A DNA stretch of 64,000 bases from assembly GCA_023150805.1 (NCBI GenBank), contig JAKLKF010000021.1, forward strand, positions 1 through 64,000, in the 5' to 3' direction. Shown here in pieces: positions 31,553 to 62,482 of this stretch. Both the position numbers and the translations under genes were made by a program. Position 1 is the first letter of the stretch. Each line of letters starts with the position of its first letter. This DNA comes from Myxococcota bacterium. Lineage in GTDB: Bacteria > Myxococcota_A > UBA796 > UBA2385. The notes under the pieces are model-generated. The model was not told where the DNA came from, searched no databases, and was given only the letters and a program-made list of their open reading frames with translations.

Positions 31553-33702
<2,150 letters not shown>

Positions 33703-33706
<4 letters not shown>

Positions 33707-35265: not shown

Positions 35266-35283
35266 TCCCCGGGTGCGGGGGGC

Positions 35284-36285: not shown

Positions 36286-36374
36286 GGGGGCGTCCTATCC
36301 GCGGCCCGCGGGGGCCCGTGCGGCGCGGCGTGTCAGTTAATGCCCCTCCTCCCCTCGCCCGCCGCGGGTCCCCC

Positions 36375-40624: not shown

Positions 40625-40627
40625 GGG

Positions 40628-44736: not shown

Positions 44737-44763
44737 GGCGGCTCGGGTGGGAGAGCGCCTGGA

Positions 44764-46562: not shown

Positions 46563-48022
46563 CAGACCCGCCGCAGCCAGCGCAGGTCGCGGGGGTGCCA
46601 GGCGCCCACGAGGTAGCCCAGCACGGCGTAGACGAGGGCGCCGACGGCGACCTGGAGCAGGACGTGGAAGGGGGGCAACAGCAACAGGACGCCGCCCATG
46701 AGCAGCGAGGGCAGGGCCGCGCGCGCCACCATCGGCAGCACGCGGTAGCCCTCCAGCAGGGGCGCCATCCGCCAGTGCTTCCACAGCAGCAGCCCCACGT
46801 CGGTCAGCAACGTGGTGAAGGCCGCGCCCGCGGCCCCCCAGCGGGGGATGGCGTACAGGTTGGCCAGGATGTTGAAGGCCGCCGCCCAGAACACCCCGCG
46901 CGTGCGATCGGCCTGGCGGTTGAGGCTGGACAGGGTCATGCCGTAGGCGTTCTTGAGGAAGCGCAGCGGGATCATGGGCGCCATGATCACGAAGGCGACC
47001 GAGGCCGCGGCGAACTCCTCGCCGCCCATCAGCACGACCAGGGGCTCGGCCAGCACGACCCCGCCCACCGCCGCGGGCATCGAGATGGCGAGCAGCACGC
47101 GGGCGGTGCGGGTCAGCTCCTCGCCGGCGGCGGCCGGGTCGCCCAGGTGGCGGGCCATGCGCGGGAAGACGCCGGTGGTGATGGTGTCGGCGACCTGGGG
47201 CAGCAGGGCGATGACGATGGTGGCCGCGCGGTAGAGCCCGACCTCGGCCTCGCCGCGCATCTGCTGGAGCATGATGACGTCGACGCTGAGGTAGACGCTG
47301 GTGAACAGGGCGTTGAGCCCGAAGGGCACCGAGCGGCGCAGCAGGCCGGGGACCTCGGCCGCCCCCTGGCGCAGCGGCAGCCGCCCGACCTCGCGGGCGT
47401 AGACGACCAGGATGATGCCCAGGGTGACCAGGGCGTCGATGACCTGGGCGCCGAAGACGGCGACGACGTCGAGCCCGGCCTGGAGCAGGACCAGGGTGGC
47501 CGCGACCAGGACCATGCGCCCGACGATGTGGCCGCCCGCGCCGAGCCCCATGCGCCGCAGGGCGTGGAAGCTGGCCACCGGCATCATCGCCAGCGAGCGC
47601 AGGCCCAGCGCCAGGGCGCCGACCGCGGCGGCGGTCACCACCAGGGGGCGGCCGTCGCCCAGCCAGGCCCAGCCGACGATGGCGGCGGCCGTGACGGTCG
47701 AGAGCAGGGCCGTCGCCAGCAGGCCGGCGGCGACCGAGCGGGGCAGCAGCGACTCGTCGCGCGAGATCTCGGCGTTGAGCAGCCGGTCCATGCCCATGTA
47801 GGAGCCGAAGGCGAACAGCCCCACCAGGGTCGTGACGTAGCCGTAGATGCCGAAGGGCTCGACGCCCAGGGCGCGCATCACGATCACGTTGACCACGAAG
47901 CCGGCGCCCAGGCGGAAGGCCTGGCTGATGCCCAGGAAGATCAGGTTCCCGCCGCGACGGAGCGCGGCGCTCCCGCCCCGCGACCCGGCCGCCGCGCCCG
48001 ACGGCTCAGGCGTGCCGGACAT
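46562..48022 (-). CDS. wzx: Wzx-type polysaccharide flippase (MOP superfamily)
   Basis: 486 aa, 12-14 helix polysaccharide_biosynth protein architecture. Confidence 0.75.
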   Translation of the reverse strand: MSGTPEPSGAAAGSRGGSAALRRGGNLIFLGISQAFRLGAGFVVNVIVMRALGVEPFGIYGYVTTLVGLFAFGSYMGMDRLLNAEISRDESLLPRSVAAGLLATALLSTVTAAAIVGWAWLGDGRPLVVTAAAVGALALGLRSLAMMPVASFHALRRMGLGAGGHIVGRMVLVAATLVLLQAGLDVVAVFGAQVIDALVTLGIILVVYAREVGRLPLRQGAAEVPGLLRRSVPFGLNALFTSVYLSVDVIMLQQMRGEAEVGLYRAATIVIALLPQVADTITTGVFPRMARHLGDPAAAGEELTRTARVLLAISMPAAVGGVVLAEPLVVLMGGEEFAAASVAFVIMAPMIPLRFLKNAYGMTLSSLNRQADRTRGVFWAAAFNILANLYAIPRWGAAGAAFTTLLTDVGLLLWKHWRMAPLLEGYRVLPMVARAALPSLLMGGVLLLLPPFHVLLQVAVGALVYAVLGYLVGAWHPRDLRWLRRV

Positions 48023-49334
48023 CCTCGACCTCCTGGTGCACCACGGCCAGGGTGAAGCCCAGCACCAGGTAGGCCATGGCCAGCGTGAGCAGGCCGAGGG
48101 TCACCGCCATCAGGGCGATGGCCGCCAGGCCCAGCGCGGCGCCCAGCACGCGGGCCCGCCCCTGGGGGTCCCGGGCGCGCCGGTAGCCCCGCGCCAGGGT
48201 GCGGGTCACGGCCAGGCCCAGCACCGCCGTCGCCAGCAGGCCGACGATCCCCTGCTCGCAGGCGATCTGCAGGTAGGTGTTGTGCGGCGGCAGCAGGTGG
48301 CCTTCCAGCGGGATGAAGCCGCTCTCGGTCTGGAACTCGCCGGGGCCGACGCCCAGCAGCGGGTGCTCCACGAACAGGTCCCAGGCCTGGCGCCCCAGCT
48401 CGGCCCGCTCGTTCAGGCTGTTGTCCTCCACCGCGGCCGTGCCGGTCAGCTTGTCCACCAGCGTGCGGTACCGGGACAGCGCGGCGTCCACGTCGACCGC
48501 CACCGGAGCGGCGACCAGCGCGGCCAGGGCGGCCAGCGACAGCTCGCCGCGCCGGTGGCGGACCAGCAGCACCGACAGGGGCAGCACCACCATCGCCGCC
48601 ACGAAGGCCGCCCGGGACTGGGTCATCATGATGGCGATCGGCGGCAGCCCGAGCATCGCCAGGCGCAGCGGCCGGGCCAGGGCGTGGTCGTCCCAGGCCA
48701 GCCCGCCCAGCAACCAGGGGGTCAGCAGCAGCAGCATGGCCCCCCACTCGTTGGGGTCGCCCATCGTGCCGGTCGACCGCCCCCCGCCGCTGGCCGCCGC
48801 CATGTTCGAGAGCAGGATGAGCGCCAGGGCGATGGCGCAGGCGCGGTAGACCCCCGCGAGGTCGGCCTCGGCCAGCGCGGCGTAGACCAGCCCCACCAGC
48901 ACGGTGAGCATGGCCAGGCCCGCCAGGTCGAAGATGCCGTAGTGCATGGACCCCACGACCGCGATCGACAGCCCGGTGGCCACGACCATCGTCAGCAGTC
49001 CCCCCAGCACCGGGTGCCAGCGGACCGGCTTGCGCCCGGTCAGCATCGCGTGCGCCGCCCACATGCCCAGGCTGCCCAGCACCGCCAGCTTCGAGGCCGT
49101 CACCGGCAGCCGGGCCACGTCGATGCCCGCCACCCCCGCCTGGTCGAAGAGCATCGCGACGTACATCAGCCCGACCAGGAAGGGCGGCGAGGACAGGCCC
49201 AGCCAGGCCACGACGAGGGCGCCCAGCAGCAGGGCCGGGAGGACCGGCGAGACGGCCACGGCGCCCCCCGCGAGCAACCCCAGCCCCATCGGCACCAGGC
49301 CCCGGCGCGACGCCGGCCACCGGGCCCCGGTCAT
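48006..49334 (-). CDS. Wzy-type polymerase / O-antigen ligase family membrane protein
   Basis: ATG at 49334. Polytopic, with a large periplasmic loop and the O-antigen-ligase-like region (MTQSRAAFVAAMVVLPL). Confidence 0.65.
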   Translation of the reverse strand: MTGARWPASRRGLVPMGLGLLAGGAVAVSPVLPALLLGALVVAWLGLSSPPFLVGLMYVAMLFDQAGVAGIDVARLPVTASKLAVLGSLGMWAAHAMLTGRKPVRWHPVLGGLLTMVVATGLSIAVVGSMHYGIFDLAGLAMLTVLVGLVYAALAEADLAGVYRACAIALALILLSNMAAASGGGRSTGTMGDPNEWGAMLLLLTPWLLGGLAWDDHALARPLRLAMLGLPPIAIMMTQSRAAFVAAMVVLPLSVLLVRHRRGELSLAALAALVAAPVAVDVDAALSRYRTLVDKLTGTAAVEDNSLNERAELGRQAWDLFVEHPLLGVGPGEFQTESGFIPLEGHLLPPHNTYLQIACEQGIVGLLATAVLGLAVTRTLARGYRRARDPQGRARVLGAALGLAAIALMAVTLGLLTLAMAYLVLGFTLAVVHQEVEDVRHA

Positions 49335-51454
49335 GCGGAGGGCGTGGACGGCCCCGCCGCGGCCGGGGGCGCAGCCCCTTCTTGGCGCTGGCCGTAGTAG
49401 GGCCGGTCCAGCCCGTAGCGCTTCGCCTCGCGGGAGATGGGCAGGTCGTTGAGCACGACGCCCAGCACGCGCGCGCCGGTCTGCCGCAGGCGGGCCAGGG
49501 TCTGGGCGACGATGGCGCGCGAGGGCAGGCCGCGCCGCACGACGACGAGCACCCCGTCGGTGTGCGAGGCCATCGCGGCGGCGTCGGCGAGCATCCCGGC
49601 GGGGGGGGTGTCGATGATGACGACCTTGTAGGTCTCGCCCAGCAGGTCGAGCACGTCGTCCATGGCCTGCGAGGCCAGCAGCTCGTTGGGCAGGTCGACG
49701 CCGGCGCCGACGGTCATCGCGTGCAGGTTCGGGATCGCCGTCGGCCGGACGAAGCGCAGCGGGTCGCGGGGGTCGGCCAGCGCCTCGGCCACGCCGGGCT
49801 CGGGCGGCAGGCCCAGCACCTGGTGCACCCGGGGCGCCCGCAGGTCCCCCTCGAAGAGCAGCACGCTCAGGCCGAGCTGGGCGTAGGCCACGGCCAGCCC
49901 GGCGGCGACGGTGGTCTTGCCCTCGCCTTCCATGGTGCTGGTCACCAGCAGGCGGCGGCTGCGGCCCCTCCCGATGGTGGAGATCAGCACGCCGCGCAGC
50001 GCCCGGAAGGACTCGGCGTAGACCGAGCGGGGGTGGTCGAGCAGGTAGAGCGCGCGCTGCTCGGGGCGGGTCTCGCCGGGCAGCGAGGGGATGGCCCCCA
50101 GCAGCGTCTCCCCGAGCAGGCCCTGCACGTCGCCCGGCGTGCCGATGCTCTCGTCGAGGCGGTGCCGCAGCAGCGCCAACCCGAAGCCGCCCCCCAGGCC
50201 CACGAACAGCGCCATGCCCATGTTGAGCGGCACGTTGGGGCGCGTCGGCCGGGAGGGCGGCTGGGCCAAGTCCACCACCCGCACGTCGTTGAGCTGGGTG
50301 TGCGCCTGCAGGTCGACCTCGGTCCCCCGCTGGCCCAGCGCGTCGTAGACCTGCCGGGCGCGCTCGTGCTCCATCTTCAGCCGGGAGTACTCCTCCTGCA
50401 GGCGCTGCTTGTCGAGCAGCTCGCCCTTGACCGAGGACAGCTCCTCCTCCAGGCGGGTCTCCTGCCGCCGCAGCGTGTTCACCCGGCTGCGCTCGGCGTC
50501 GACCGCGCGCGCGACCTCGGCGGCCAGCATCTCCTCGACCCGGGCCTGGTGGGCCAGGGCGCGGCGGTGCTCGGGGTGCTGGTCCCCGTAGCGGGCCAGC
50601 ACCTGGGCCGACTGCGCCACCACCTGGGCGTGCTCCTCGGCCAGGGCGTTGAGGGTCGGGTCGTCGAACATGCCCGCCAGGACGTCGGTGTCGCCGGCCC
50701 GCAGCAGCCGCTGGTGCTCGTAGAGGCGGGTCTCGAGCAGGACCCGCTCGGTGGTGGTGTCGCCATAGGCCTGCTGCAGCGCCGAGAGGCGGGAGCTGAT
50801 CCCGTCGATCCGCTCCTCGATGTCGACGACGTCCTGCTCCTCCTTGAACTGCAGGAGCGCGGCGCTGGCCTGGTCGACCGACTGCAGGTACTGGTCGCTG
50901 CGGTTCTCGATCCACACCTTCGTGTCGCGCGCGGCGTCCCGCCGGGCGTCCAGGTTGCCCTCCTGGTAGACCTCGGCCACCAGGTTGGCGAGCGCGGCGG
51001 CGCGCTCGGGGTCGGCATGGGCGACCCGGATCTCGACGAGCTGGGTGTCCTCCCGGGGGCCGGCCGAGAGCTTGCGCCCCAGCCGGTCCACGTCGTCGGA
51101 CGTCGGCCGCAGGTCGTCGAAGCCCTGCTGGTTGTAGCGTCGGAGCGCTTCTTCCCGGACCACCCGGCTCTGGATGATCTGCACCTGGGTGCGCGCCCGC
51201 TCCCGCCCCTCCATGTAGCCGCCGGCGTCGGACTGCACGACCTCGCGCACCGCGATCTCCTGGCCCGCGCGCGGCAGCAGGTGGACCACGGTGACCGCCT
51301 CGTACTCCCGATCCGCCAGGGCGGTGCCGACGCCGGCCGCGACCAGCGAGGCGCCGAGGAAGCCCAGGAAGGTCACCCTCTGCTGGCGGATCACCTCCAG
51401 CAGGTGGCCGAGGTCCAGCCAGGGATCGGGCGGGCGGTGGGACGAGGTGCTCAC
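49331..51454 (-). CDS. wzc: Polysaccharide co-polymerase / tyrosine autokinase (Wzc, PCP-2a)
   Basis: GTG at 51454. N-terminal transmembrane segment, Wzz periplasmic coiled-coil, second transmembrane segment. Cytoplasmic kinase Walker A TSTMEGEGKTT and Walker B VVIIDTPP. Confidence 0.85.
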   Translation of the reverse strand: MSTSSHRPPDPWLDLGHLLEVIRQQRVTFLGFLGASLVAAGVGTALADREYEAVTVVHLLPRAGQEIAVREVVQSDAGGYMEGRERARTQVQIIQSRVVREEALRRYNQQGFDDLRPTSDDVDRLGRKLSAGPREDTQLVEIRVAHADPERAAALANLVAEVYQEGNLDARRDAARDTKVWIENRSDQYLQSVDQASAALLQFKEEQDVVDIEERIDGISSRLSALQQAYGDTTTERVLLETRLYEHQRLLRAGDTDVLAGMFDDPTLNALAEEHAQVVAQSAQVLARYGDQHPEHRRALAHQARVEEMLAAEVARAVDAERSRVNTLRRQETRLEEELSSVKGELLDKQRLQEEYSRLKMEHERARQVYDALGQRGTEVDLQAHTQLNDVRVVDLAQPPSRPTRPNVPLNMGMALFVGLGGGFGLALLRHRLDESIGTPGDVQGLLGETLLGAIPSLPGETRPEQRALYLLDHPRSVYAESFRALRGVLISTIGRGRSRRLLVTSTMEGEGKTTVAAGLAVAYAQLGLSVLLFEGDLRAPRVHQVLGLPPEPGVAEALADPRDPLRFVRPTAIPNLHAMTVGAGVDLPNELLASQAMDDVLDLLGETYKVVIIDTPPAGMLADAAAMASHTDGVLVVVRRGLPSRAIVAQTLARLRQTGARVLGVVLNDLPISREAKRYGLDRPYYGQRQEGAAPPAAAGPSTPSA

Positions 51455-51575
51455 GCGCGACGCCTATCCCGCGGGCACCTGCCCAGCGGGCCGGCCAGCT
51501 TCACCGGATGTCTCCGAACGCGCCGGCCTGTCGCGGCCGCTGGCCGCGGGGGCACCGACTGGCGATATTGCCGCC

Positions 51576-52574
51576 GTGATCACCAGCCTGCCGCGCGGCG
51601 TCTTCACCCTGAGCCTGGACTTCGAGCTGGTCTGGGGCTCTCGGGACCTCTACGACCCGCTGGAGCCGCTGCTGGTCCAGGCCCGGGACACGCGCCGGAT
51701 CGTCTTCGAGCGGCTGCTCGGGCGCCTGCAGGCCCTGGGCATGGTGGCCACCTGGGCGACCGTCGGTCACCTCTTCCTCGCCGAGGCCCGCCGCGTCGAC
51801 GGCGTGCTGCACCCCGAGGTCGTCCCCCCGGCGCACCGGTGGTACCCCCGGCCCTGGTTCCAGGACGTGCCCGAGGGGACCGAGGCCGAGCACCCGGAGT
51901 TCTACGGGCGCAGCCTGGTGCGCCGCCTGGTCGAGGCGGGCCAGGAGATCGGCAGCCACAGCTTCTCCCACCCCGTCTTCGGCGACCCGGGCTGCTCGCG
52001 GCAGTGCGCCGACACCGACCTGGCCCGCTGCGTGGCCCTGGGGCGCGAGCTGGGGCTGACCCTGCGCGCCTTCGTCTTTCCCCGCAACGTCGTCGGTCAC
52101 CTGGACCTGGTCGCGCGCCACGGCTTCACCTGCTGGCGGGGGCCGGCGCCCGACTGGTACAGCCGACCGGGAGTGCCCCGGGTGGCGGGGCGCCTGGCGC
52201 ACCTGGCCGACGTGGCCCGGGCAGCGCGGCCCCCGACGGTGCTCCCCGAGCGCGGGCCCCACGGGCTGTGGAACGTGCCGGCGTCGGCCTCCTTCCTGCC
52301 CTCGGACGGCGTGCGGAGGGTGATCCCCGTCTCCCGCCGCGTCGACCGGGCGCTCGCGGGCCTCTCCGACGCGGTCGACCAGCGGCGGGTCTTCCACCTC
52401 TGGCTGCACCCGATCAACCTGGCCTCTCATCCCGAGCCCATGCTCGCCGGCCTGTGCCGGGTGCTGGACCAGGCCGCCCGCCTGCGGGACGCCGGACGGC
52501 TCGACGTGCTCGGCATGGCCCAGGTGGCGGAGCGGGCCCAGGCGCAGGAGCCGGTCGCGGCCCGCTCGGCCTGA
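51576..52574 (+). CDS. Polysaccharide deacetylase (carbohydrate esterase family 4 / NodB)-like protein
   Basis: TLSLDFE (DxE-like) and HSFSHP His motifs. Start uncertain: GTG at 51576 is the first in-frame start not overlapping wzc. Confidence 0.65.
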   Translation: MITSLPRGVFTLSLDFELVWGSRDLYDPLEPLLVQARDTRRIVFERLLGRLQALGMVATWATVGHLFLAEARRVDGVLHPEVVPPAHRWYPRPWFQDVPEGTEAEHPEFYGRSLVRRLVEAGQEIGSHSFSHPVFGDPGCSRQCADTDLARCVALGRELGLTLRAFVFPRNVVGHLDLVARHGFTCWRGPAPDWYSRPGVPRVAGRLAHLADVARAARPPTVLPERGPHGLWNVPASASFLPSDGVRRVIPVSRRVDRALAGLSDAVDQRRVFHLWLHPINLASHPEPMLAGLCRVLDQAARLRDAGRLDVLGMAQVAERAQAQEPVAARSA

Positions 52575-53742: not shown

Positions 53743-53991
53743 ATGGCGACCCGGAAGCAGATCCAGGACCTGTTCACTGCGGCCTTGGGCCTGCCGGCCG
53801 AGACCGACTTCGCGACCCTGGCCTACCGCGGCGTGCCGCAGTGGGACTCGGTGGCGCACATGAGCCTGGTCGCGCGGCTGGAGGCGGCCCTGGGCATCAT
53901 GCTCGAGACCGACGACGTGCTCGACATGAGCAGCTTCGACGAGTGCCTGCGCATCCTGGCGCGCCACGGGGTGCGGGTCGAGGAGCCCTGA
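53743..53991 (+). CDS. Acyl carrier protein
   Basis: 82 aa with the phosphopantetheine attachment motif GVPQWDSVAHMSLVARLE (DS-L). SD ggagga upstream. Confidence 0.7.
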   Translation: MATRKQIQDLFTAALGLPAETDFATLAYRGVPQWDSVAHMSLVARLEAALGIMLETDDVLDMSSFDECLRILARHGVRVEEP

Positions 53992-53998
53992 GCGCCGC

Positions 53999-55396
53999 TC
54001 AGCTTCCCGGTCGCACCAGCACCGTCTGCAGGGTCTTGAGCACGATCAGCACGTAGAGCAGCGGGCTCATCTCCTGGATGGAGAACAGCTCGTACCGCAG
54101 CTTCTCGGCGGCGTCCTCGGTGGTGGCGCCGTAGCGGTACATCACCTGGGCCCAGCCGGTGACCCCCGGCTTCACGGCGAAGCGCAGCGCGTAGAAGGGG
54201 ATCTGCTCCTCGAGCTGGCGCACGAAGTGCTCGCGCTCCGGCCGCGGGCCGACCATGGACATGTCGCCGCGCAGCACGTTCCAGAACTGGGGCAGCTCGT
54301 CGATGCGCGTGCGCCGCAGGATGCGGCCGACCCGGGTCACCCGGGGGTCGCTGGCCCCCTGGGACCAGACCGCGCCCGTCTTCGACTCCGCGTCCCGCCC
54401 CATGGTCCGCAGCTTGATGATGGTGAAGGGCCGCTCGCCCTTGCCCAGCCGCTCCTGCAGGAAGAACGCGGGCCCCGGCGTCTCCAGCCGGATGACGATC
54501 CCCGCGACCAGGATCACCGGCGCCGACAGCAGCAAGCCCACCACGGCGAGCGCCATGTCCGCGAGCCGCTGGGTGGTGGCGATGAGCGGCCGGTCGGCGT
54601 TGAAGCCCGGCCCGAAGATGAGCCAGGTGTCGGCGACGTGGTCGATGGGCACCTTGCCCGTCAGCCGCTTGTACAGCGAGGGCATGTCGACGATGGTCAG
54701 CCCCCGCGACTTGCACTCCAACAGCTGCTGGGTGAGCCGCTCGTGCATCCCCCCGCGGATCGCCACGATCACCAGGTCGATGCGGTGCTTGCGGGTGAGC
54801 TTGACCAGGTCGACCGCCGGTCCCAGCACCAGCATCCCGGTCGGCGAGTGCAGGACCCGGTCGTCGACGAAGCCCACCAGGTCGTAGACCGAGCCGTGCT
54901 CCTGGTGGGTGCGCACCACCTCGGCGATCGCGTGGCCCGCGCGCCCGGCGCCCACGACCAGGCAGCGGTGCCGGCGCGTCGGCAGCGGGCGCACCACCGT
55001 CAGGGCCACGCGCCACCCGGGCAGCAGCACGCCGAAGCACAGGCTGGAGAGCGCCGCCACCCCGCGCCCGATCCACCAGTGCGGGAACAGGTAGAAGAGC
55101 GTGGCCTGCGCGAGGAAAGCCGCCGCGATCGCGAGCAGCAGCCGCAGCAGCTCCCTGCCGCGCCGGTAGTCCCGCCCCGGGTCGAAGGCGTCCGCCACGT
55201 AGAGCAGGACCAGGTGGGTCAGGACGAAGAAGACCGTCGCGCCGGTCTCTTCGGACAGGATCCGCGCCAGGCTGGCGGCGCCCTGGTCCAGGCCCAGGCG
55301 CAGGGCGTGGCCCACCTGGAGGGCGACCAGGGCCATCACCACGTCGCCCGCGACCATCAGGAGCTGCCGGCGCTGGTAGGGGATGCCCAGGACCAT
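53999..55396 (-). CDS. Undecaprenyl-phosphate sugar phosphotransferase (WbaP/EpsZ-like priming glycosyltransferase)
   Basis: ATG at 55396. N-terminal transmembrane helices, NAD-binding-like middle domain, and the bacterial sugar transferase domain (IDELPQFWNVLRGDMSMVGPRP). Confidence 0.85.
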   Translation of the reverse strand: MVLGIPYQRRQLLMVAGDVVMALVALQVGHALRLGLDQGAASLARILSEETGATVFFVLTHLVLLYVADAFDPGRDYRRGRELLRLLLAIAAAFLAQATLFYLFPHWWIGRGVAALSSLCFGVLLPGWRVALTVVRPLPTRRHRCLVVGAGRAGHAIAEVVRTHQEHGSVYDLVGFVDDRVLHSPTGMLVLGPAVDLVKLTRKHRIDLVIVAIRGGMHERLTQQLLECKSRGLTIVDMPSLYKRLTGKVPIDHVADTWLIFGPGFNADRPLIATTQRLADMALAVVGLLLSAPVILVAGIVIRLETPGPAFFLQERLGKGERPFTIIKLRTMGRDAESKTGAVWSQGASDPRVTRVGRILRRTRIDELPQFWNVLRGDMSMVGPRPEREHFVRQLEEQIPFYALRFAVKPGVTGWAQVMYRYGATTEDAAEKLRYELFSIQEMSPLLYVLIVLKTLQTVLVRPGS

Positions 55397-56631
55397 CAGG
55401 TGCTCTCCGGATCCGCCGGCAGGCCCCCCGGCGCCCGCTCGACGGCCAGCGGACCGGGCCGCGGCCCGCCCACCTCGGCGATCACCTCCTCGTACACCGC
55501 GCGGGTGCCCTCCAGCATGCGCCGCACGGTGAAGCGAGCCTCGTAGGCCGCACGCCCCGCGTCGCCCTGCCGCTGCCGCAGGGCCGGGTCCTGGAGCAGG
55601 GCCTGCAGCGCCGCGGCCAGGCCCGCCTCGTCCCCGCGGCCGACCAGGGCCCCGGTCCGCCCTGGCGCCACCGCCTCGCGCACGCCCCCGACGTCGCTGG
55701 CCACCACCGGCAGGCCGGCGCGCATCGCCTCCAGGACGACCAGGGGGAAGCCCTCCTGCCGGGAGATCAACAGCCCCACCTGCGCCTGCGCCATCAGCTC
55801 GGGCACGTCCAGCCGGGTGCCCAGCAGCTCGACCCGGTCGCGCAGCCCCAGCGCGTCGACGGTGCGCTCGACCGCTGGCCGGTCCGGCCCGTCCCCCACC
55901 AGGCGCAGCCGCCACGGGGCCGCGACCCGCGACAGCGCCCGCAGCAGCAGCGTGGGGTCCTTGGGCGCGGCCAGGCGCGCCACCATCAGCAGGACCGGCA
56001 CCCCCTCCCGTCCCGGACGGGCGCGGGGCGCGACGTCCGCCACCCCGTTGTGCACGACCCGCACCTGGGCGGGCCGCGCCACCCGGTAGCGCAAGCCCAC
56101 CTCGCGGTCGGCCTCGCTCACGACGATGAAGCGCCGCGTCCAGCGCGCCGCCGCCGCCTCCAGCGGGACGGCCAGGGCCTTGCGTCGCCAGGCGATCCCG
56201 TCGGAGAAGGCCCAGGAGTGGGCCGTGTGGATCGCCGGCCGCCCCTCCAGGCGCGCCGCCAGGCGCCCCAGCAGCCCGGCCTTGCTGCTGTGGGTGTGCA
56301 CCAGGTCCGGCCGCACCTGCCGGATGAGGCGCCGCAGGGAGCGGAGGGCCGGCAGGTCGCGGGCAGGGTCGATCTCCCGCTCCAGCTCGGGCACCACGTG
56401 GACCGGCAGGCCCAGCGCGCGCGCCTGGTCCGTCAGCCAGCCCTGGTCCCCGCAGGCCAGGACCGGGTCGACCGCCCCGCGCAGGCCGGCCAGGAGGTCG
56501 CGCACGTGCACCTGGGCGCCGCCCGGCTCGGCGCGGGTGATGACCACCAGCGCCGTGGGCCGCTCGCCCCGCCCGCCGTGCCGCCCGGCTGCGTCCACCT
56601 GCTGCCCCTCTGCCGCCCGCCCCGGGACCAC
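55396..56631 (-). CDS. Glycosyltransferase family 4 (start uncertain)
   Basis: LVVITRAEPGGAQ N-terminus and EGFPLVVLEAMRAGLPVVASDVGG C-terminus. ATGA overlap with wbaP. Confidence 0.75.
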   Translation of the reverse strand: MVPGRAAEGQQVDAAGRHGGRGERPTALVVITRAEPGGAQVHVRDLLAGLRGAVDPVLACGDQGWLTDQARALGLPVHVVPELEREIDPARDLPALRSLRRLIRQVRPDLVHTHSSKAGLLGRLAARLEGRPAIHTAHSWAFSDGIAWRRKALAVPLEAAAARWTRRFIVVSEADREVGLRYRVARPAQVRVVHNGVADVAPRARPGREGVPVLLMVARLAAPKDPTLLLRALSRVAAPWRLRLVGDGPDRPAVERTVDALGLRDRVELLGTRLDVPELMAQAQVGLLISRQEGFPLVVLEAMRAGLPVVASDVGGVREAVAPGRTGALVGRGDEAGLAAALQALLQDPALRQRQGDAGRAAYEARFTVRRMLEGTRAVYEEVIAEVGGPRPGPLAVERAPGGLPADPEST

Positions 56632-56717
56632 CCCGCGGGGGCACCCAAGGTAGCCCGTCCGGCCTCCGGCCGGCGACCGCGCGCGCTACCCTCGGCGCGA
56701 AGGGCAGGAGGAGGCCG

Positions 56718-58157
56718 GTGTACGAGGTGCGGGCGCCACAGGCCCACGGCGTGCGGCCCGCGCTGTGGCACGAGGGCCGGGTGATCACCCACGAGGAGCT
56801 GGCCGACGCGGTCGAGGCGCTGGCCGGCAGCCTGCGGGACCGCGGCCCCGGGCTGGTCCTGGCCTTCTGCCGCGGCCGCCCCGGCACCGTGCTGGGCCTG
56901 CTGGCCGCCCGCGCCGCCGGCCTGCCGGTCGCGCTGGTCGACGCCAACCTGGCCGCGCCGCAGCGCCGGGCCCTGGTCGAGGCCTACCGCCCGGAGTGGA
57001 TCCTCGACGACCGCCCCGAGGACGACGCGGTCGAGCGCCTGCCCGTGGAGGACGCCGTGCTCGGCCGGCGCCCCGGGCCCCCCGGCCCCGCCCCTCACCC
57101 CGACCTGGCCCTGCTCCTGTCCACCTCGGGCACCACCGGCAGCCCCAAGCTGGTCCGGCTCTCGGCCGCCGCCGTCGCCCACAACGCCCGGGCCATCGCC
57201 GCGGCCCTGGACCTCGGCCCCGAGGAGCGGGCCCTGCAGGCCCTCCCCCTGCACTACTCCTACGGGCTCTCCGTCCTGCACAGCCACCTGGTCGCCGGCG
57301 GCAGCGTGGCGCTGACCGAGCGCTCGCCCATGGAGCGGGGCTGGTGGCAGGACCTCGCCGACGCCGGCTGCACCAGCCTGCCCGGCGTGCCCACCGGCTG
57401 GCGCCACCTGCTGCGCCTGGGACTGCTCGACCGCGCACCGCCCGGCCTGCGCACGTGCACCCAGGCCGGCGGGCGGCTGGAGCCGGAGCGCGTCCGCCTC
57501 CTGGCGAGCTGGGCCGCGGCGCGCGGCGGCGATCTGCGCGTCATGTACGGGCAGACCGAGGCCACAGCCCGCATCGCCGTGATGCCGCCGGGGGCCAGCC
57601 TGCGCCGGCCCGAGGCGGCGGGCCGGGTGCTCGCGGGCGGCGCGCTGTGGATCGAGGCGCCCGGCTCGGCCGGACCGGAACGGCCTCCCGAGGTGGGAGA
57701 GGTCGTCTACCGCGGCCCCAACGTGATGATGGGCTACGCCCGGCGGCGCGCAGACCTGGCCCGGGGCGACGAGCTGCAGGGCGTGCTGCGCACCGGCGAC
57801 CTGGGCCGGCTGGACGAGGCGGGGCTGCTGGTGCTGGCCGGGCGCCGCAGCCGCCTGGCCAAGGTCCACGGCCTGCGCCTGGAGCTGGACGAGGTGGAGG
57901 CGCTGCTGCAGCCCCACGGCCCGACGGCCGCGCTCGAGGGTGACGACGAGCTGGTCCTGGCCTGCGCCTGGGGCAGCCCGGCGGAGCTGGGCGCCCTGGC
58001 GCCGACGCTGGCGGTCCGCTTGCGCCTGCCCGCCGCCGCCCTGCGCCTGGTCCACCTCGACGCGCTGCCCCTGTCGGCCAGCGGCAAGATCGACTACCCG
58101 GCGCTGCGCCGGGAGCTGCTGCCCGCCCCCCTCCCCGCCGCCGTGGACCCGCGATGA
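56718..58157 (+). CDS. AMP-dependent synthetase/ligase (adenylating enzyme)
   Basis: GTG at 56718. Core motifs LLSTSGTTGSPK, YGQTE and GDLGRLDEAGLLVLAGRR. Confidence 0.8.
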   Translation: MYEVRAPQAHGVRPALWHEGRVITHEELADAVEALAGSLRDRGPGLVLAFCRGRPGTVLGLLAARAAGLPVALVDANLAAPQRRALVEAYRPEWILDDRPEDDAVERLPVEDAVLGRRPGPPGPAPHPDLALLLSTSGTTGSPKLVRLSAAAVAHNARAIAAALDLGPEERALQALPLHYSYGLSVLHSHLVAGGSVALTERSPMERGWWQDLADAGCTSLPGVPTGWRHLLRLGLLDRAPPGLRTCTQAGGRLEPERVRLLASWAAARGGDLRVMYGQTEATARIAVMPPGASLRRPEAAGRVLAGGALWIEAPGSAGPERPPEVGEVVYRGPNVMMGYARRRADLARGDELQGVLRTGDLGRLDEAGLLVLAGRRSRLAKVHGLRLELDEVEALLQPHGPTAALEGDDELVLACAWGSPAELGALAPTLAVRLRLPAAALRLVHLDALPLSASGKIDYPALRRELLPAPLPAAVDPR

Positions 58158-59242
58158 CGCTCGACGCCCTGCTCGCCGCCACGCCGGGCCAGGTCTCGCT
58201 GGCCGAGAAGGAGGCCGCACTGCTGGCGCTGCTGTCCGAGCGCACCGCCTGGCACCGGCAGCGCTGCCCGGCCTACGCCCGCCTGCTCGACCAGCTCCAC
58301 CCGGGCGTCCACGCCCCGGCCCGCCTCGCCGACCTGCCCTGGCTGCCCGTGGGCCTGTTCAAGAGCCACGAGCTGGCCAGCGTGCCGCCGGCCGAGCGCT
58401 TCAAGGTCCTGCACTCCAGCGGCACCACCGGCCAGGCGCGCAGCCGCATCGTGCTCGACCGCGCCACCGCCGCCCTGCAGGCCCGGGGCCTCGCCGCCTG
58501 CCTGCGCCCGGTGCTGGGCCCCCGGCGGCTGCCCATGCTGCTGGTCGAGAGCGCCGACCTGCTCACCGACGCGCGCGCCGCCTCGGCCCGCGGGGCCGGT
58601 GTGCTCGGGATGATGGCCCTGGGTCGCGACCACCTCTTCGCGCTGGACTCCGACCTGGAGCTGCGGATCCCGGCCCTGGCGGACTGGCTCTCGCAGCACG
58701 GGCACGCGCCCTTCGTCGTGTTCGGCTTCACCTTCCTGGTGTGGCGCCACCTCGCCCTGGCCGCCGAGGGGCGGGGCCTGGACATGTCCCAGGCCATCCT
58801 CGTCCACTCCGGCGGGTGGAAGAAGCTCCAGGACCAGGCCGTCGACCGGGCCACCTTCCGCGCGGGCCTGCGCGAGCGCCTGGGCATCGAGCGCGTGCAC
58901 GACTTCTACGGCATGGTCGAGCAGGTCGGCAGCGTCTTCCTGGAGGGCGAGGACGGGCTGCTGTACCCGCCGCCCTTCGGCGAGGTGCTGGTCCGCGACC
59001 CGCTGCGCTTCGAGGTGCTGCCCGACGGCGAGGAGGGCCTGCTGCAGGTGTTGAGCCCCCTGCCCCTGAGCTACCCGGGCCACAGCCTGCTCACCGCCGA
59101 CCTGGGGGTCGTGCACCGGGTCGAGCGGGGTCCCGGCGGGGTCCCGGCCCGCGGCCTGCAGGTGCGGGGCCGGGTGCCCCGGGCCGAGCTGCGCGGCTGC
59201 AGCGACACCCACGCCGTCGGCGCCGCCGGGGGCGCGCCGTGA
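58154..59242 (+). CDS. LuxE-like acyl-protein synthetase family protein
   Basis: ATGA overlap. SSGTTG nucleotide-binding motif (VLHSSGTTGQARSRIV) and overall LuxE-like length and layout. Confidence 0.65.
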   Translation: MTLDALLAATPGQVSLAEKEAALLALLSERTAWHRQRCPAYARLLDQLHPGVHAPARLADLPWLPVGLFKSHELASVPPAERFKVLHSSGTTGQARSRIVLDRATAALQARGLAACLRPVLGPRRLPMLLVESADLLTDARAASARGAGVLGMMALGRDHLFALDSDLELRIPALADWLSQHGHAPFVVFGFTFLVWRHLALAAEGRGLDMSQAILVHSGGWKKLQDQAVDRATFRAGLRERLGIERVHDFYGMVEQVGSVFLEGEDGLLYPPPFGEVLVRDPLRFEVLPDGEEGLLQVLSPLPLSYPGHSLLTADLGVVHRVERGPGGVPARGLQVRGRVPRAELRGCSDTHAVGAAGGAP

Positions 59243-60492
59243 GCGCCGCGGCGCCGCCGACGGTCCAGCGCCTGGCCCCGGAGCCCGGGCCGGTCGCCGT
59301 GCCCACGCTGCTGCGCGACCTGGCCGAGGCGCCCGACGGCCGCCCCTTCGACGCCGACCGGCAGGCCCTCTGCGCCGACCTCAGCGCCCGGCTGCTCGAC
59401 CACCCCGCGGCCCGGCGCTTCCCCGAGCTGGTGGCGCTGGGCTGGTGGCTGCGCCCCGCCGAGGTGACGCGGCTGGCGCGCGCCTTCGCGGCGCTGGAGG
59501 ACGAGCGCTCGGTGCTCTGCCCCCGGGGCCTGGCCCTGCACCTGCCGCCGGCCAACGTCGACACGCTGTCGGTGCACTCCTGGGCGCTCTCGCTGCTGGT
59601 CGGCAACCGCAACCTGGTCCGCCTCTCCTCCCGCCGTTCCCCGGTCAGCGACGCCGTGTCGGAGGTGCTCTCCGCCGCGCTGGCCGCCGCCGCGCCCGCG
59701 CTGCGCGCCGGCAACCAGCTCGTCTCCTACCCGCACGACGCCGCCGTCACCGCCGCCCTCTGTGCGGGGATCGACGCCCGGGTCGTCTGGGGAGGGGACG
59801 CCACCGTCGCCGCCCTGCGCGCCGTGCCGATGCCCGCCACCGCGGTCGACCTGTCCTTCGGCGACCGGTGGTCGCTGGCGGTGGCCCGCGCCGGGGCCTG
59901 GCGGGACCTGTCGGAGGAGGCCCGCGACCAGCTCGCCCAGCGGCTGTTCAACGACGCGTACTGGTTCGACCAGCAGGCCTGCGCCTCGCCGCGGATGCTG
60001 GCCTGGGTGGGAGCGGGCGGCCATGAATGTGGGCGGGAGCTGTTCACCCGGGTCGCCGCCCACGCGCGCGCCCGGGGCTGGCAGCCCGACGCGGCCACCA
60101 GCCTGCAGAAGCTGGAGTTCGCCGCGCGGGCCGTGCTGGACGCCGAGGTCCGCGCCCTGTTCCGCCCCGACCCGGCCGTCACCGTGATCGAGCTGCACCA
60201 CGCCCGGGGGCTGTCCCGCGCCCACGAGGGCGGTGGGCTGTTCTACCAGGTCGAGCTGCCCGACCTGGAGGCGCTGCTGCCGCTGGTCCAGCGGCGCGAC
60301 CAGACCCTGGTCGCCTTCGGCTTCTCCGACCCCGAGCTCCGCGCGCTGGCGCGCAGCCTGGGCGGGCGCGGCATCGACCGCATCGTGCCCTTCGGGCAGG
60401 CCCTGGCCTTCCACCGCTACTGGGACGGTCTGGATCTCTTGCAGGCCCTCTCCCGTCGAGTAGGGGTGCAGACCGACCCCGGCCTCCCCTGA
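59239..60492 (+). CDS. LuxC-like acyl-CoA/acyl-protein reductase family protein
   Basis: GTGA overlap. ~417 aa. Aldehyde-dehydrogenase-fold-like with conserved Cys region (DQQACASPRMLAWVG). Only the C-terminal third of ORF 57940..60492 is protein-like. Confidence 0.65.
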   Translation: MSAAAPPTVQRLAPEPGPVAVPTLLRDLAEAPDGRPFDADRQALCADLSARLLDHPAARRFPELVALGWWLRPAEVTRLARAFAALEDERSVLCPRGLALHLPPANVDTLSVHSWALSLLVGNRNLVRLSSRRSPVSDAVSEVLSAALAAAAPALRAGNQLVSYPHDAAVTAALCAGIDARVVWGGDATVAALRAVPMPATAVDLSFGDRWSLAVARAGAWRDLSEEARDQLAQRLFNDAYWFDQQACASPRMLAWVGAGGHECGRELFTRVAAHARARGWQPDAATSLQKLEFAARAVLDAEVRALFRPDPAVTVIELHHARGLSRAHEGGGLFYQVELPDLEALLPLVQRRDQTLVAFGFSDPELRALARSLGGRGIDRIVPFGQALAFHRYWDGLDLLQALSRRVGVQTDPGLP

Positions 60493-60493
60493 C

Positions 60494-62482
60494 ATGCCCG
60501 TCGACCTGCCCGAAGACCGCCAGCCCCTCGCCGAGCGCCTGCAGGACCTGCGGCGCGCGGCGCCCGGCTTCTGGCGACGCCAGGTCAAGACCGCGCGGCA
60601 GGCCCGCTACGGCTGGCGCCACGACAAGCAGATCACCTTCGTCTTCGGCTGCCAGCGCTCCGGCACGAAGATGCTGATGCGCGTCCTGGACCACAGCCCC
60701 GCCATCCGCATCTTCCACGAGAACCACGCCTCGGCCTTCCAGGACTTCCAGCTCCGCGCCGACGGCGTGCTGCGCGCCCTGGTGGCGCTCAACCCCGCGC
60801 CGGCCCAGGTCTTCAAGCCCATCTGCGACAGCCACAAGGCCGACCTGCTGCTGGACCGCTTCGACGACGCCCGGGGCCTGTGGATCTACCGGCACTACGA
60901 CGACGTGGCGAACTCGGCGGACGTCAAGTGGGGCGACCACCAGCGCCAGCTCGCCGACGCGGTCGCGAAGGGCGAGCTGGACACCTGGGGCTGGCGCACC
61001 GAGCGGCTGCCCCCGGAGGTGATCGCGGACATCCGCCGGGTGTGGCGGCCCGACCTGACGCCGTCCGAGGGCGCCCTGCTGTTCTGGTACCTGCGGAACA
61101 GCTTCTTCTTCACCCTGGACCTGCCCGCCCACCCGCGGGTCCACCTCGTCCGCTACGAGGACCTGGTCACCCGGCCCGAGCCGTCCTTCGCCCGGGTCTT
61201 CCAGGTGGTCGGCGCGCCCTTCGACCCCTCGCTGGTGGCCGGCGTGCGCAGCACCAGCGTCGGCCGCCGCCCCGCCCCTGCCGCCAGCCCCGAGATCCGC
61301 GCCCTGTGCCAGGGCCTGCTGGAGCGCCTGGACGCCGTCGCCGCCACCCAGGTCCAGGCCTGGACCCCGCCCCCCCCGCGGCCCCTGACCTCCCCGGTCC
61401 TGGTGCTCAACAACACGCTGGGGGTCGGCGGGGCCGAGCGCTACATCGTCACGGTGGCCAACTGGCTGGCCGCCCACGGCAGCCGCGTCGTGGTCGCCGC
61501 CGAGCACGGCCCCATGGTCGACCAGCTCGACCCCGCCGTGCGCTTCGTCGACGTGCCCCTGGCCCGCGTGCGGGCCGACCTGCCAAGGGCCGCCCGCCAG
61601 GTGCGGCGCCTCATCGAGCAGGAGCGCCCCGCCGCCATCGTCGCCAACTCGCTCGCCGTGACCTGGGTGGCGCGGGCCGCCCAGGGGCGCCGCCGGGTGC
61701 CCATCGTCAACGTCGCCCACGGCTGGCCGGCCGACCGCTACACCAGGGTCGGGCCCCTGATGCGGATCGCCGACGCGGTGGTCGCCGTCTCGCCCGAGGT
61801 CAAGCGCAAGCTCGTGGCCGGTGGCCTGGACGAGGGCCGCTGCACCGTGATCTTCAACGGGGTGGACTGCGCCCCCTTCCACCCGCGCCAGGGCCCGGCC
61901 CGGGACCAGGCCCGCGCGGCGATGGGCGCCGGCCCCGACGACCTGCTCGTGGTCAACCTCGGCCGCCTCTCGGCACAGAAGGCCCACCAGCACGTCGTCG
62001 AGATCGCCCGGCGCCTGCGGCAGGAGCTGCCCTCCCTGCGCTTCGCCGTCATCGGCGAGGGCGAGCGCCAGGACGAGCTGCAGGCCCGGATCGACGACCA
62101 GGACCTGGCCGACCGGGTGCGCCTGATGGGTCGGCGCATGGACGTGGCCGAGCTGCTGGGCGCCGCCGACCTCTTCCTGTCCACCTCGGACTGGGAGGGC
62201 ATGCCCCTGTCGATGATCGAGGGCATGGCCTCCGGCCTGCCGGTCGTGGCCACCGCCACCGAGGGCGTGGCCGAGTTGCTCGACGCCGAGAGCGGCGTCG
62301 TCGTGCCCGTGGGCGACGTGGCCGCCATGGCGAGCGCCGTGGCCGACCTGGCCCGCGATCCCGACCGCCGGCGCCACATGGGGCAGGCGGCCCGGGACCG
62401 GGCCCTGGCCAGGTTCAGCCACGACCGGATGGTGAGCGAGCTGGAGGCGGTCCTGGCGCGAGTGGGGGGTGCGCGGCGCTGA
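60494..62482 (+). CDS. Bifunctional sulfotransferase (N-terminal) / GT4 glycosyltransferase (C-terminal) fusion
   Basis: N-terminal 5'-PSB-like FVFGCQRSGTKMLMRVL and 3'-PB-like YRHYDDVANS. The C-terminal half is a full GT4 (LVLNNTLGVGGAERY ... EGMPLSMIEGMASGLPVVAT). Confidence 0.7.
   Translation: MPVDLPEDRQPLAERLQDLRRAAPGFWRRQVKTARQARYGWRHDKQITFVFGCQRSGTKMLMRVLDHSPAIRIFHENHASAFQDFQLRADGVLRALVALNPAPAQVFKPICDSHKADLLLDRFDDARGLWIYRHYDDVANSADVKWGDHQRQLADAVAKGELDTWGWRTERLPPEVIADIRRVWRPDLTPSEGALLFWYLRNSFFFTLDLPAHPRVHLVRYEDLVTRPEPSFARVFQVVGAPFDPSLVAGVRSTSVGRRPAPAASPEIRALCQGLLERLDAVAATQVQAWTPPPPRPLTSPVLVLNNTLGVGGAERYIVTVANWLAAHGSRVVVAAEHGPMVDQLDPAVRFVDVPLARVRADLPRAARQVRRLIEQERPAAIVANSLAVTWVARAAQGRRRVPIVNVAHGWPADRYTRVGPLMRIADAVVAVSPEVKRKLVAGGLDEGRCTVIFNGVDCAPFHPRQGPARDQARAAMGAGPDDLLVVNLGRLSAQKAHQHVVEIARRLRQELPSLRFAVIGEGERQDELQARIDDQDLADRVRLMGRRMDVAELLGAADLFLSTSDWEGMPLSMIEGMASGLPVVATATEGVAELLDAESGVVVPVGDVAAMASAVADLARDPDRRRHMGQAARDRALARFSHDRMVSELEAVLARVGGARR

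Follow-up and report, generated by a model that had tools for sequence, protein, structure and literature searches.

What do relatives of the bioluminescence proteins LuxE and LuxC do in a polysaccharide gene cluster? The question is raised by a 64,000-nucleotide stretch of DNA from a Myxococcota metagenome-assembled genome (MAG; contig JAKLKF010000021.1 of assembly GCA_023150805.1; the whole stretch is called the window below), in which genes for an acyl carrier protein (ACP), an adenylate-forming enzyme, a LuxE-family acyl-protein synthetase and a LuxC-family thioester reductase lie within a soil-type myxobacterial exopolysaccharide (EPS) cluster. We think it rather likely that this locus encodes a carrier-protein-dependent route by which an amino sugar of an EPS exported by the Wzx/Wzy pathway receives a short N-acyl group other than acetyl. 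The most informative parts of the locus are ones that the original prediction for this DNA overlooked, namely the genes for a proposed deacetylase and a predicted tandem-GNAT protein upstream of the ACP gene, and the absence of a short-chain dehydrogenase/reductase (SDR) gene.

Gene identification

The G+C content is about 75% across the window, so spurious open reading frames (ORFs) are frequent; a mechanical ORF list, most of whose long entries are spurious, was rejected at face value, and gene calling relied instead on third-position GC and on patterns across codon positions. The ORFs at 53743–53991, 56718–58157, 58154–59242 and 59239–60492 are all four real genes with exact coordinates. 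The ORF preceding them, originally given as 51291–52574, needed correction: its true start is a GTG at 51576, and the product is 88% identical to that of a 332-residue gene in a second metagenomic organism (L085). The genes on which the argument turns are the following.

44764–45459, minus strand: B1, Sfp-type phosphopantetheinyl transferase (PPTase), 231 amino acids (aa); PF01648 48.2 bits (cutoff 25)
51576–52574, plus strand: F, candidate CE4/NodB-type polysaccharide deacetylase, 332 aa
52597–53709, plus strand: G, predicted tandem-GNAT acyltransferase, 370 aa
53743–53991, plus strand: H, ACP, 82 aa
53999–55396, minus strand: I, priming polyprenyl-phosphate sugar-phosphate transferase (PGT); Pfam Bac_transf 197 bits, TIGR03025 352 bits (cutoff 295)
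55396–56631, minus strand: J, GT4 glycosyltransferase; Glyco_trans_1_4 126 bits, Glyco_transf_4 97 bits
56718–58157, plus strand: K, adenylate-forming (AMP-binding) enzyme, 479 aa; PF00501 152.7 bits
58154–59242, plus strand: L, LuxE-family acyl-protein synthetase, 362 aa; PF04443 136.5 bits (cutoff 24.9)
59239–60492, plus strand: M, LuxC-family thioester reductase, 417 aa; PF05893 93.3 bits (cutoff 21)
60494–62482, plus strand: N, sulfotransferase–GT4 fusion, 662 aa; Sulfotransfer_3 44.5 bits, Glycos_transf_1 120.7 bits

K, L and M overlap by 4 bp at each junction (ATGA between K and L, GTGA between L and M), as had been described, and N is translationally coupled to M, whose stop codon is separated from the N start by a 1-nucleotide spacer. 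The F–G–H operon is convergent with the PGT gene I, and the GT4 gene J is divergent from the K–L–M–N operon. Protein L is deposited as MCK6503483.1, annotated as 'acyl-protein synthetase'.

The LuxE- and LuxC-like proteins

The assignment of L and M to the LuxE and LuxC families, on which the original prediction had staked its case, is borne out by Pfam scores far above the cutoffs and by intact catalytic residues. Residues 4–352 of L cover positions 19–385 of the 391-position LuxE profile, and alignment with the cryo-EM structure of LuxE from Photobacterium phosphoreum (PpLuxE; 7xc6_E) places K223, R340 and C349, which are invariant in 27 homologues, on PpLuxE K238, R355 and C364. In PpLuxE, K238 and R355 form the adenylation/thioesterification pair and C364 is the acylated cysteine of the motif TRxxKGCxLS (PMC9157457). 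A single-sequence search of the PDB with M gave no match and a profile of 18 orthologues was needed; its alignment with 7xc6_A puts C248 (in WFDQQAC), invariant in 18 homologues, on the catalytic cysteine of PpLuxC. Both proteins are full length, keep all of these catalytic residues and are predicted to be competent.

The pair thus shares with the Lux LuxC–LuxE system (PDB code 7xc6) its Pfam families, the Lys/Arg pair and C-terminal GCS cysteine of LuxE, the catalytic cysteine of LuxC and the adjacent, overlapping arrangement of the two genes. It differs in that luxA, luxB and luxD are lacking, in that M is some 60 residues shorter and without the C-terminal cleft-exit segment, and in its setting, since the pair lies in a glycan locus that also encodes a dedicated ACP and another adenylating enzyme. 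In the NCBIfam collection L scores 61.9 bits against the LuxE equivalog NF052244 (cutoff 550) and M 31.8 bits against the LuxC equivalog NF052251 (cutoff 750). Pfam scans of 43.9–64 kb found no lux gene, the neighbours being glycan genes. With scores so far under the equivalog cutoffs and in this context, the idea that the trio are true bioluminescence genes was rejected.

Membership of these families could also mean that a long-chain fatty acid is activated and reduced as by LuxE and LuxC, so that a fatty acyl group, aldehyde or alcohol would arise and the product would be a lipo-polysaccharide or liposugar. We regard such lipidation as unlikely, and the low equivalog scores are a first reason. 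A second comes from the substrate cleft. The M-family profile ends at residue 444 of the 477 in the LuxC chain, about 33 residues short of the C-terminus, and the family has no counterpart to the LuxC segment with I472, L478 and F483, which line the exit of the 40-Å myristoyl cleft (PMC9157457). The phenylalanine that follows the catalytic cysteine of LuxC is alanine in M and serine in the family consensus. The missing segment and the replaced phenylalanine together hint, and do no more than hint, at a substrate for M shorter than that of LuxC.

Database annotation of these families calls for some care. In RefSeq, LuxC-like reductases of polysaccharide loci carry the Gene Ontology term 'bioluminescence' (for example at NZ_CP026517.1 8877–10133, our locus L092, and in the Rhizobium locus L093 described below) and 'long-chain fatty acid--CoA ligase' appears as the name of some LuxE-like genes; both annotations have probably been propagated wrongly.

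The carrier protein and its phosphopantetheinyl transferase

As a single sequence H scores 17.9 bits against Pfam PP-binding (PF00550), under the cutoff of 20.8. A profile built from 18 H orthologues finds 41 ACPs of solved structure, down to E = 2e-5, and Ser36 falls on the phosphopantetheine serine of their DS motif. The surrounding sequence is W-D-S36-V-A-H-M, and W34, S36, H39 and M40 are invariant among the orthologues. H is therefore a genuine carrier protein, as originally claimed, but the site read as DS-L is in fact DSV(AHM), and the gene taken to stand alone is the third of the F–G–H operon. H is of the roughly 80-residue type described below for a widespread cassette: it carries the cassette motif WDS[VI]xHM and is 50% identical to the cassette ACP of a Gemmatimonadaceae MAG (L004).

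The Sfp-type PPTase predicted in the wza operon is also present. B1 contains the motifs GVDLERI (at residue 119) and WSAREAALK (at residue 159) and, besides PF01648, a weak match to 4PPT_N, making it of the two-domain type. Its start overlaps the stop of the upstream GT4 gene, and it sits 8.3 kb from H. An NCBIfam scan assigned neither H nor B1 to a family. B1 would convert H to its holo form; both parts are in place, and their pairing is a proposal.

The adenylating enzyme and the nature of the acid

The adenylase motifs quoted originally are present in K, SGTTGSPK at residue 137 and YGQTE at residue 277. The best solved relatives of K are VinN, MenE, malonyl-CoA synthetases and oxalyl-CoA synthetases; these activate small dicarboxylates and are not FadD enzymes, a third point at odds with lipidation. 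VinN loads 3-methylaspartate onto a stand-alone ACP. In the alignment, VinN D230, the aspartate that binds the amino group of the substrate, is replaced by Ser181 in K, which carries the acyl-CoA-ligase-like motif PLHYSYG; an amino-acid substrate for K is therefore unlikely. K330 and R331 of VinN are the two key residues of its β13β14 substrate-recognition loop (PMC11253843). We read R331 as a contact to the second carboxylate of the substrate; it aligns with R285 of K, within YGQTEATAR, and that arginine is kept without exception in 18 K orthologues spanning seven phyla. A literature search gave nothing usable on the carboxylate-binding residues of MatB.

The substrate of K is thus probably a C3–C5 dicarboxylate or hydroxy-dicarboxylate (malate, succinate and malonate are examples) and not an amino acid, this choice of acid being the weakest link of the model. 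A dicarboxylate would explain why the cassette holds two adenylating enzymes, K acting on one carboxylate and the LuxE-like protein on the other. After reduction of that second carboxylate to an aldehyde by the LuxC-like protein, the SDR (in V. cholerae an iron-containing alcohol dehydrogenase) would carry it on to the alcohol; malate would so yield a dihydroxybutanoyl group, the tetronate residue, and succinate a 4-hydroxybutanoyl group. The latter is found on sugars as 3,6-dideoxy-3-(4-hydroxybutyramido)-D-galactose (PMC3210612).

The deacetylase and tandem-GNAT genes

F scores 22.3 bits against PF01522, just under the cutoff of 23.1. It has 613 homologues, and many among the matches listed carry PF01522 or the name 'polysaccharide deacetylase'; close homologues with PF01522 are 55–70% identical to F. 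On this likeness we propose that F is a CE4/NodB-type deacetylase and the maker of a free sugar amine.

G has ten close homologues in all, and its Pfam match to GNAT is only at threshold (20.7); a sequence search of the PDB with a G profile returned noise only. An AlphaFold (AF2) model built from the ten-sequence alignment has a mean predicted local distance difference test score (pLDDT) of 85 and a predicted TM-score (pTM) of 0.85. Comparison of this model with the PDB using Foldseek gave the Eis-like GNAT 2ozg, many N-myristoyltransferases (NMT1/2) and Eis2 (E ~1e-13 to 1e-11, TM ~0.6 over 337–396 columns, probability 1.00). The modelled fold is that of a tandem GNAT, as in the amine-acylating NMT and Eis enzymes.

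An exhaustive hidden Markov model search of 1.84 billion representatives found 41 relatives of G at E ≤ 1e-30 and 843 at E ≤ 1e-10. Three G-like domains among the matches listed each occupy the C-terminal end of a type I polyketide synthase (PKS); the three synthases have 1,569–4,122 residues, and the domains are at these positions.

P0295: residues 2910–3259
P0354: residues 1222–1564
P0375: residues 3777–4084

In all three the G-like domain directly follows the last PP-binding (ACP) domain identified by Pfam. This position suggests an unusual amide-forming off-loading domain, and the fusion is independent, if indirect, evidence that the G family may draw its acyl group from a carrier-protein thioester. 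Gene order points the same way. G directly precedes the ACP gene in every locus that extends past G (L085, L087/L088, L089 and L090; the contig of L091 ends inside G), and F directly precedes G in L085, L089 and L090, the F homologue of L087/L088 lying downstream of LuxC instead. We propose that G is an acyl-ACP:sugar-amine N-acyltransferase, although acyl-CoA may be its donor instead.

The pairing recalls known logic, in that NodB, NodA and NodF, and likewise LpxC and LpxD, deacetylate a sugar amine and then N-acylate it from acyl-ACP. In the window a CE4-type deacetylase, a candidate N-acyltransferase and a dedicated ACP stand side by side, a likeness and not homology: the modelled tandem-GNAT fold of G is unlike NodA and unlike the hexapeptide fold of LpxD, and in place of a fatty acid the window probably supplies a short, oxygenated acyl group.

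A further comparison is with XrtA/PEP-CTERM EPS loci, in which an ACP, a polysaccharide deacetylase and a FemAB-like protein of GNAT fold are likewise encoded. I scores 382 bits against TIGR03013, and the second-best NCBIfam match of K is TIGR03098 (exosortase-A-associated acyl-CoA ligase). At 131 bits against a cutoff of 592, membership of K in TIGR03098 was rejected. So was a TIGR03006/TIGR03019-type PEP-CTERM membership, since F and G, like H and B1, matched no NCBIfam model. No exosortase or PEP-CTERM genes occur in the examined part of the window.

A widespread cassette and its contexts

The trio had been thought an unusual combination. That view was overstated, because the copy in the window is a rearranged member of a very common cassette whose canonical unit is ACP, FabG-like SDR, AMP ligase, LuxE and LuxC. 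More than 5,200 homologues of the LuxE-like protein could be detected, and at least 596 species genomes (one genome per species) contain a relative. In the 85 loci whose layout was examined by tblastn, the AMP ligase gene lies directly upstream of LuxE and LuxC directly downstream without exception (85/85 each); in 81/85 an ACP of the cassette type is encoded some 2.15 kb upstream, and the FabG-like SDR stands between ACP and ligase in 79/85. These loci come from seven phyla (Acidobacteriota, Myxococcota, Actinomycetota, Bacteroidota, Alphaproteobacteria, Bacillota and Chloroflexota).

The surroundings strongly link this widespread cassette, already noticed in the literature, to glycan acylation. 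DegT-like genes are found within 10 kb in 48/85 loci. In L004 two DegT aminotransferase genes lie a few kilobases upstream of the cassette, and directly after it come genes for a sugar N-acyltransferase of the NeuD/PglB/VioB type (TIGR03570, 176 bits) and for a small Bac_transf protein. RefSeq annotates the cassette as a matter of routine. A Deinococcus plasmid carries it within an EpsG/GT locus, flanked by genes for a sugar transferase and a NeuD-type acetyltransferase; RefSeq labels it there 'acyl carrier protein / SDR / AMP-binding protein / acyl-protein synthetase / acyl-CoA reductase', the last of these with the Gene Ontology term 'bioluminescence'. In loci with DegT and NeuD-type genes the acceptors of the same acyl-ACP would be 3- or 4-amino-dideoxy sugars, and the F–G pair looks like an alternative module for making the acceptor and transferring the acyl group, drawing on the same acyl supply. 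The original idea that a carrier-bound acyl group is passed to a sugar thus gains from the cassette contexts (DegT, sugar N-acyltransferases and priming transferases) and from the deacetylase–GNAT operon, its chemistry remaining a matter of proposal.

A minority of loci, L002 for example, have no obvious glycan genes within 10 kb, as would be expected if the trio made an aldehyde or alcohol for a secondary metabolite or lipid metabolism and merely happened to lie within the EPS locus. We consider coincidental placement of this kind very improbable. The interleaved layout of PGT, GT4, Wzc, deacetylase, GNAT and ACP genes recurs in five related contigs; the M stop is 1 nucleotide from the start of the glycosyltransferase gene N; the PPTase gene is inside the wz operon; and elsewhere sugar N-acyltransferase and DegT genes adjoin the cassette.

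A distant, rearranged version (LuxE 38% identical) was observed on the Rhizobium anhuiense plasmid pRA_T24_2 (183342–202310; L093). It comprises a hexapeptide acyltransferase annotated as LpxA-type, an ACP-sized hypothetical protein, an AMP-binding protein, DegT, LuxE, LuxC, an SDR, FabZ and a split transketolase, and similar versions occur on other Rhizobium plasmids.

A split copy without the SDR

In the window the order AMP ligase, LuxE, LuxC is kept, but H lies 2.7 kb upstream of K, with I and J between them on the other strand. Only 7 nucleotides separate the ACP stop from the convergent PGT stop. No cassette SDR is present in the window: the best tblastn match, 30% identical, is at 2218–2886, about 51 kb upstream of the ACP gene, and is a generic SDR. 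Nor does an SDR occur in the additional 4 kb of contig available in L001. The second metagenomic organism (L085/L086; LuxE 76–77% and F 88% identical to those of the window) has the identical SDR-less layout. In L087/L088 (LuxE 62% identical), L089 and L090 an SDR of 249–255 residues directly follows the ACP. The F–G–ACP(–SDR) operon is convergent with the PGT and GT4 genes in L085, L089 and L090, and the G–ACP–SDR part of L087/L088 is as in L089/L090.

One of these loci, L088 (CAZRFD010000061.1, also recorded as L009), comes from a MAG labelled 'uncultured Enterobacterales', closely parallels the Myxococcota window and has, in addition, a Ser/Thr kinase with an FGE-sulfatase domain; its taxonomic label or binning looks doubtful.

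The ratio of nonsynonymous to synonymous substitution rates (dN/dS) was calculated by NG86 between the two SDR-less genomes, at about 77–80% amino-acid identity.

K (AMP ligase): 0.42
L (LuxE-like): 0.35
M (LuxC-like): 0.33
H (ACP): 0.40
G (tandem GNAT): 0.31
F (deacetylase): 0.20
J (GT4): 0.29
I (PGT): 0.12

K, L, M and H are under purifying selection, and the values of 0.33–0.42 show that the module is maintained and not decaying. These figures bear on whether it might be partly defunct, only K, the ACP and G still mattering after loss of the SDR and LuxE and LuxC being dispensable passengers. The SDR of 79/85 loci is indeed absent here and in L085, and dN/dS for K, L and M is somewhat above that of the PGT. 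Yet L and M are full length with every catalytic residue, remain overlapped with K and coupled to N, and have dN/dS well under 1 and close to that of J and G, so a decayed state strikes us as quite improbable.

Comparison with known glycan-acylation systems

The five-gene set is found in the group II flagellin glycosylation islands of 98 Aeromonas strains and in three or four types of Enterobacteriaceae flagellin island, where it was read as 'fatty-acid synthesis' genes that may add a lipid, a reading offered as a proposal only (PMC7874193, PMC4875605). By the published gene descriptions the cassette of these islands and that of the window consist of the same families, keep the order AMP ligase, LuxE, LuxC and lie within glycan-biosynthesis loci. 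The window differs in lacking the SDR, in having its ACP detached into another operon and in its target, a Wzx/Wzy EPS instead of a flagellin glycan. Unlike canonical cassette loci, it has as its likely transferase a deacetylase plus tandem-GNAT pair in place of a NeuD/PglB/VioB hexapeptide enzyme.

The cassette is present in A. piscicola AH-3, on whose flagellin a derivative of pseudaminic acid (Pse) of 376.14 Da and an unexplained 102-Da moiety have been found (PMC7874193). Replacement of one acetyl group (42.011) of a Pse5Ac7Ac residue (316.127) by C4H6O3 (102.032) gives 376.148. Both masses therefore fit C4H6O3, which is suggestive of a dihydroxybutanoyl group (the tetronate residue) or an isomer.

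These considerations, together with the cassette itself, complete the case on lipidation. In its favour, a lipid component has been proposed for the flagellin islands (PMC7874193, PMC4875605), and the ACP and the FabG-like SDR (TIGR01830, 264 bits) resemble fatty-acid machinery. Against it, the cassette includes neither a LuxD-type thioesterase nor a ketosynthase, and the Aeromonas glycan masses allow an acyl group of only about C4 (PMC7874193). The literature yielded nothing usable on a link to Shewanella flagellin or to a gene for the 4-hydroxybutyramido group of Yersinia ruckeri.

A second comparison is with the wbeK–O (rfbK–O) set of Vibrio cholerae, which includes an ACP (WbeK) and an acetyltransferase (WbeO). 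The O antigen of V. cholerae O1 is perosamine N-acylated with tetronate (3-deoxy-L-glycero-tetronic acid), and mutations in wbeL, wbeM or wbeN abolish or alter the O1 antigen (PMC3441752, PMC9915646); mutations in either of two wbe genes confer pan-resistance to O1-dependent phages (PMC9915646). The product of the set is thus a short hydroxylated C4 N-acyl group, and the wbe genes are a genetic precedent for a LuxC/LuxE-type module making such a group in a polysaccharide locus. The likeness is one of part lists, as given in PMC3441752 and PMC9915646. A single 825-residue V. cholerae protein (encoded by wbeN) combines LuxC and LuxE, which are separate genes in the window, and there the iron-containing alcohol dehydrogenase WbeM, not an SDR, is credited with the second reduction. 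The window has neither; no iron-containing alcohol dehydrogenase was found among the window genes scanned.

Proposed pathway

The pathway that we propose is built on observed gene identities, catalytic residues, synteny, domain fusion and purifying selection and on the modelled fold of G; its substrates, the order of its steps, the acyl donor of G and the acceptor sugar are what we infer. Once holo-ACP has formed, K would adenylate a small carboxylic acid, probably a C3–C5 dicarboxylate or hydroxy-dicarboxylate, and load it onto H. L would then adenylate the second, free carboxylate and capture the acyl group on Cys349, residues that are in place for a substrate that we suggest, and would hand it to Cys248 of M, which would reduce the thioester to an aldehyde with NAD(P)H. 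Alternatively, L and M may reduce the free acid ahead of loading. In the canonical cassette the FabG-like SDR would reduce the aldehyde or oxo group to give an omega-hydroxyacyl-ACP; here, either a housekeeping FabG-type reductase may substitute or the decoration may keep its oxo group. F would de-N-acetylate one of the repeat-unit sugars, and G would move the acyl group from acyl-S-ACP to the amine so exposed, as the operon structure, fold and PKS domain fusions suggest. The repeat unit would be built by the PGT and GT4 enzymes, probably sulfated by N, and exported through Wzx, Wzy, Wzc and Wza.

Several points weigh against this interpretation. The idea of a dicarboxylate depends on one aligned arginine and on the top-scoring solved enzymes, and an isomeric O-methylglyceroyl group would also explain the 376-Da and 102-Da masses of the Aeromonas flagellin. 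The ACP and FabG-like SDR would fit a fatty-acid-type chemistry too, the 'liposugar' reading of the flagellin papers. As the SDR is absent, the product here may differ from that of the canonical cassette. No biochemical characterisation of the cassette proteins was found in the literature, so that the original description of the chemistry as largely uncharacterised remains fair. On balance we still favour N-acylation of an EPS amino sugar by a short, carrier-bound acyl group. A more specific version is offered tentatively, as a possibility that we would not yet call probable: the cassette would be a general pathway that turns a dicarboxylate of primary metabolism (such as malate or succinate) into an ACP-bound omega-oxo- or omega-hydroxyacyl group by a 'distal carboxylate reduction' through LuxE and LuxC, and this lineage would have rewired it with a hitherto unrecognised ACP-dependent tandem-GNAT transferase family that also serves off-loading in some PKSs and, after loss of the SDR, possibly with an aldehyde-bearing group on a de-N-acetylated, probably sulfated EPS.

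The surrounding exopolysaccharide locus

The Wzx/Wzy context claimed for the module is confirmed by an export and polymerisation operon whose genes overlap or are tightly packed; several GT4 genes and the Bac_transf gene found in Pfam scans complete it. The neighbouring features are listed below.

43924–51454, minus strand: export/polymerisation operon, wzc-wzy-wzx-GT4-PPTase-wza
43924–44736, minus strand: Wza; Pfam Poly_export and SLBB
45456–46562, minus strand: GT4 of the wz operon; Pfam GT4
46562–48022, minus strand: Wzx; Pfam Polysacc_synt
48006–49334, minus strand: Wzy; Pfam Wzy_C
49331–51454, minus strand: Wzc; Pfam GNVR/Wzz/P-loop
62536–63093, plus strand: RimI-like GNAT acetyltransferase; TIGR01575 86.6 bits, at cutoff

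The full sulfotransferase–GT4 fusion N is also found in L086, and the contig of L085 ends after the start of that gene; in L087, where the SDR is present, a plain 385-residue GT4 follows LuxC in place of the fusion. The EPS is probably sulfated through the sulfotransferase domain of N. The RimI-like GNAT gene lies inside the EPS locus and is kept in L001 and L086; its product may add a further acetyl decoration or be unrelated.

A block of lower G+C content (67–70%, compared with about 75%) at 38312–43846 on the minus strand encodes a 1,072-residue AAA/STAND ATPase and a 770-residue protein. The latter matches RADAR RdrB (97 bits) and the ATPase matches RdrA weakly (21 bits), so that the block looks like a RADAR-like anti-phage defence pair and was rejected as part of the EPS locus. 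It interrupts the EPS genes, with an epimerase (35284–36294) and a GT4 (36273–37514) to its left and wza (from 43924) to its right. A 546-residue frame at 33646–35283 on the minus strand has an odd codon-position GC pattern (first position 0.97, third position 0.86), and this frame may not be that of a genuine gene.

Significance

The surface sugars of bacteria can bear N-acyl groups other than acetyl, known ones being tetronate, 3- and 4-hydroxybutanoyl and glyceroyl. Such groups influence antigenicity, phage receptors and the properties of the biofilm matrix. To our knowledge, the genes that make most of them are unassigned, and the cassette described here is among the commonest unassigned gene sets of glycan loci. 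What is genuinely new in the window is the split, SDR-less architecture and the operon of deacetylase, tandem-GNAT and ACP genes with its link to polyketide synthases. The locus is a natural 'minus-SDR' variant with a clean candidate transferase pair and, as such, a tractable in vitro system for the chemistry. Should the product be an ordinary hydroxyacyl group, the outcome would be a useful annotation rule and no surprise; beyond that, the locus could define a new family of ACP-dependent acyltransferases shared with polyketide synthases.

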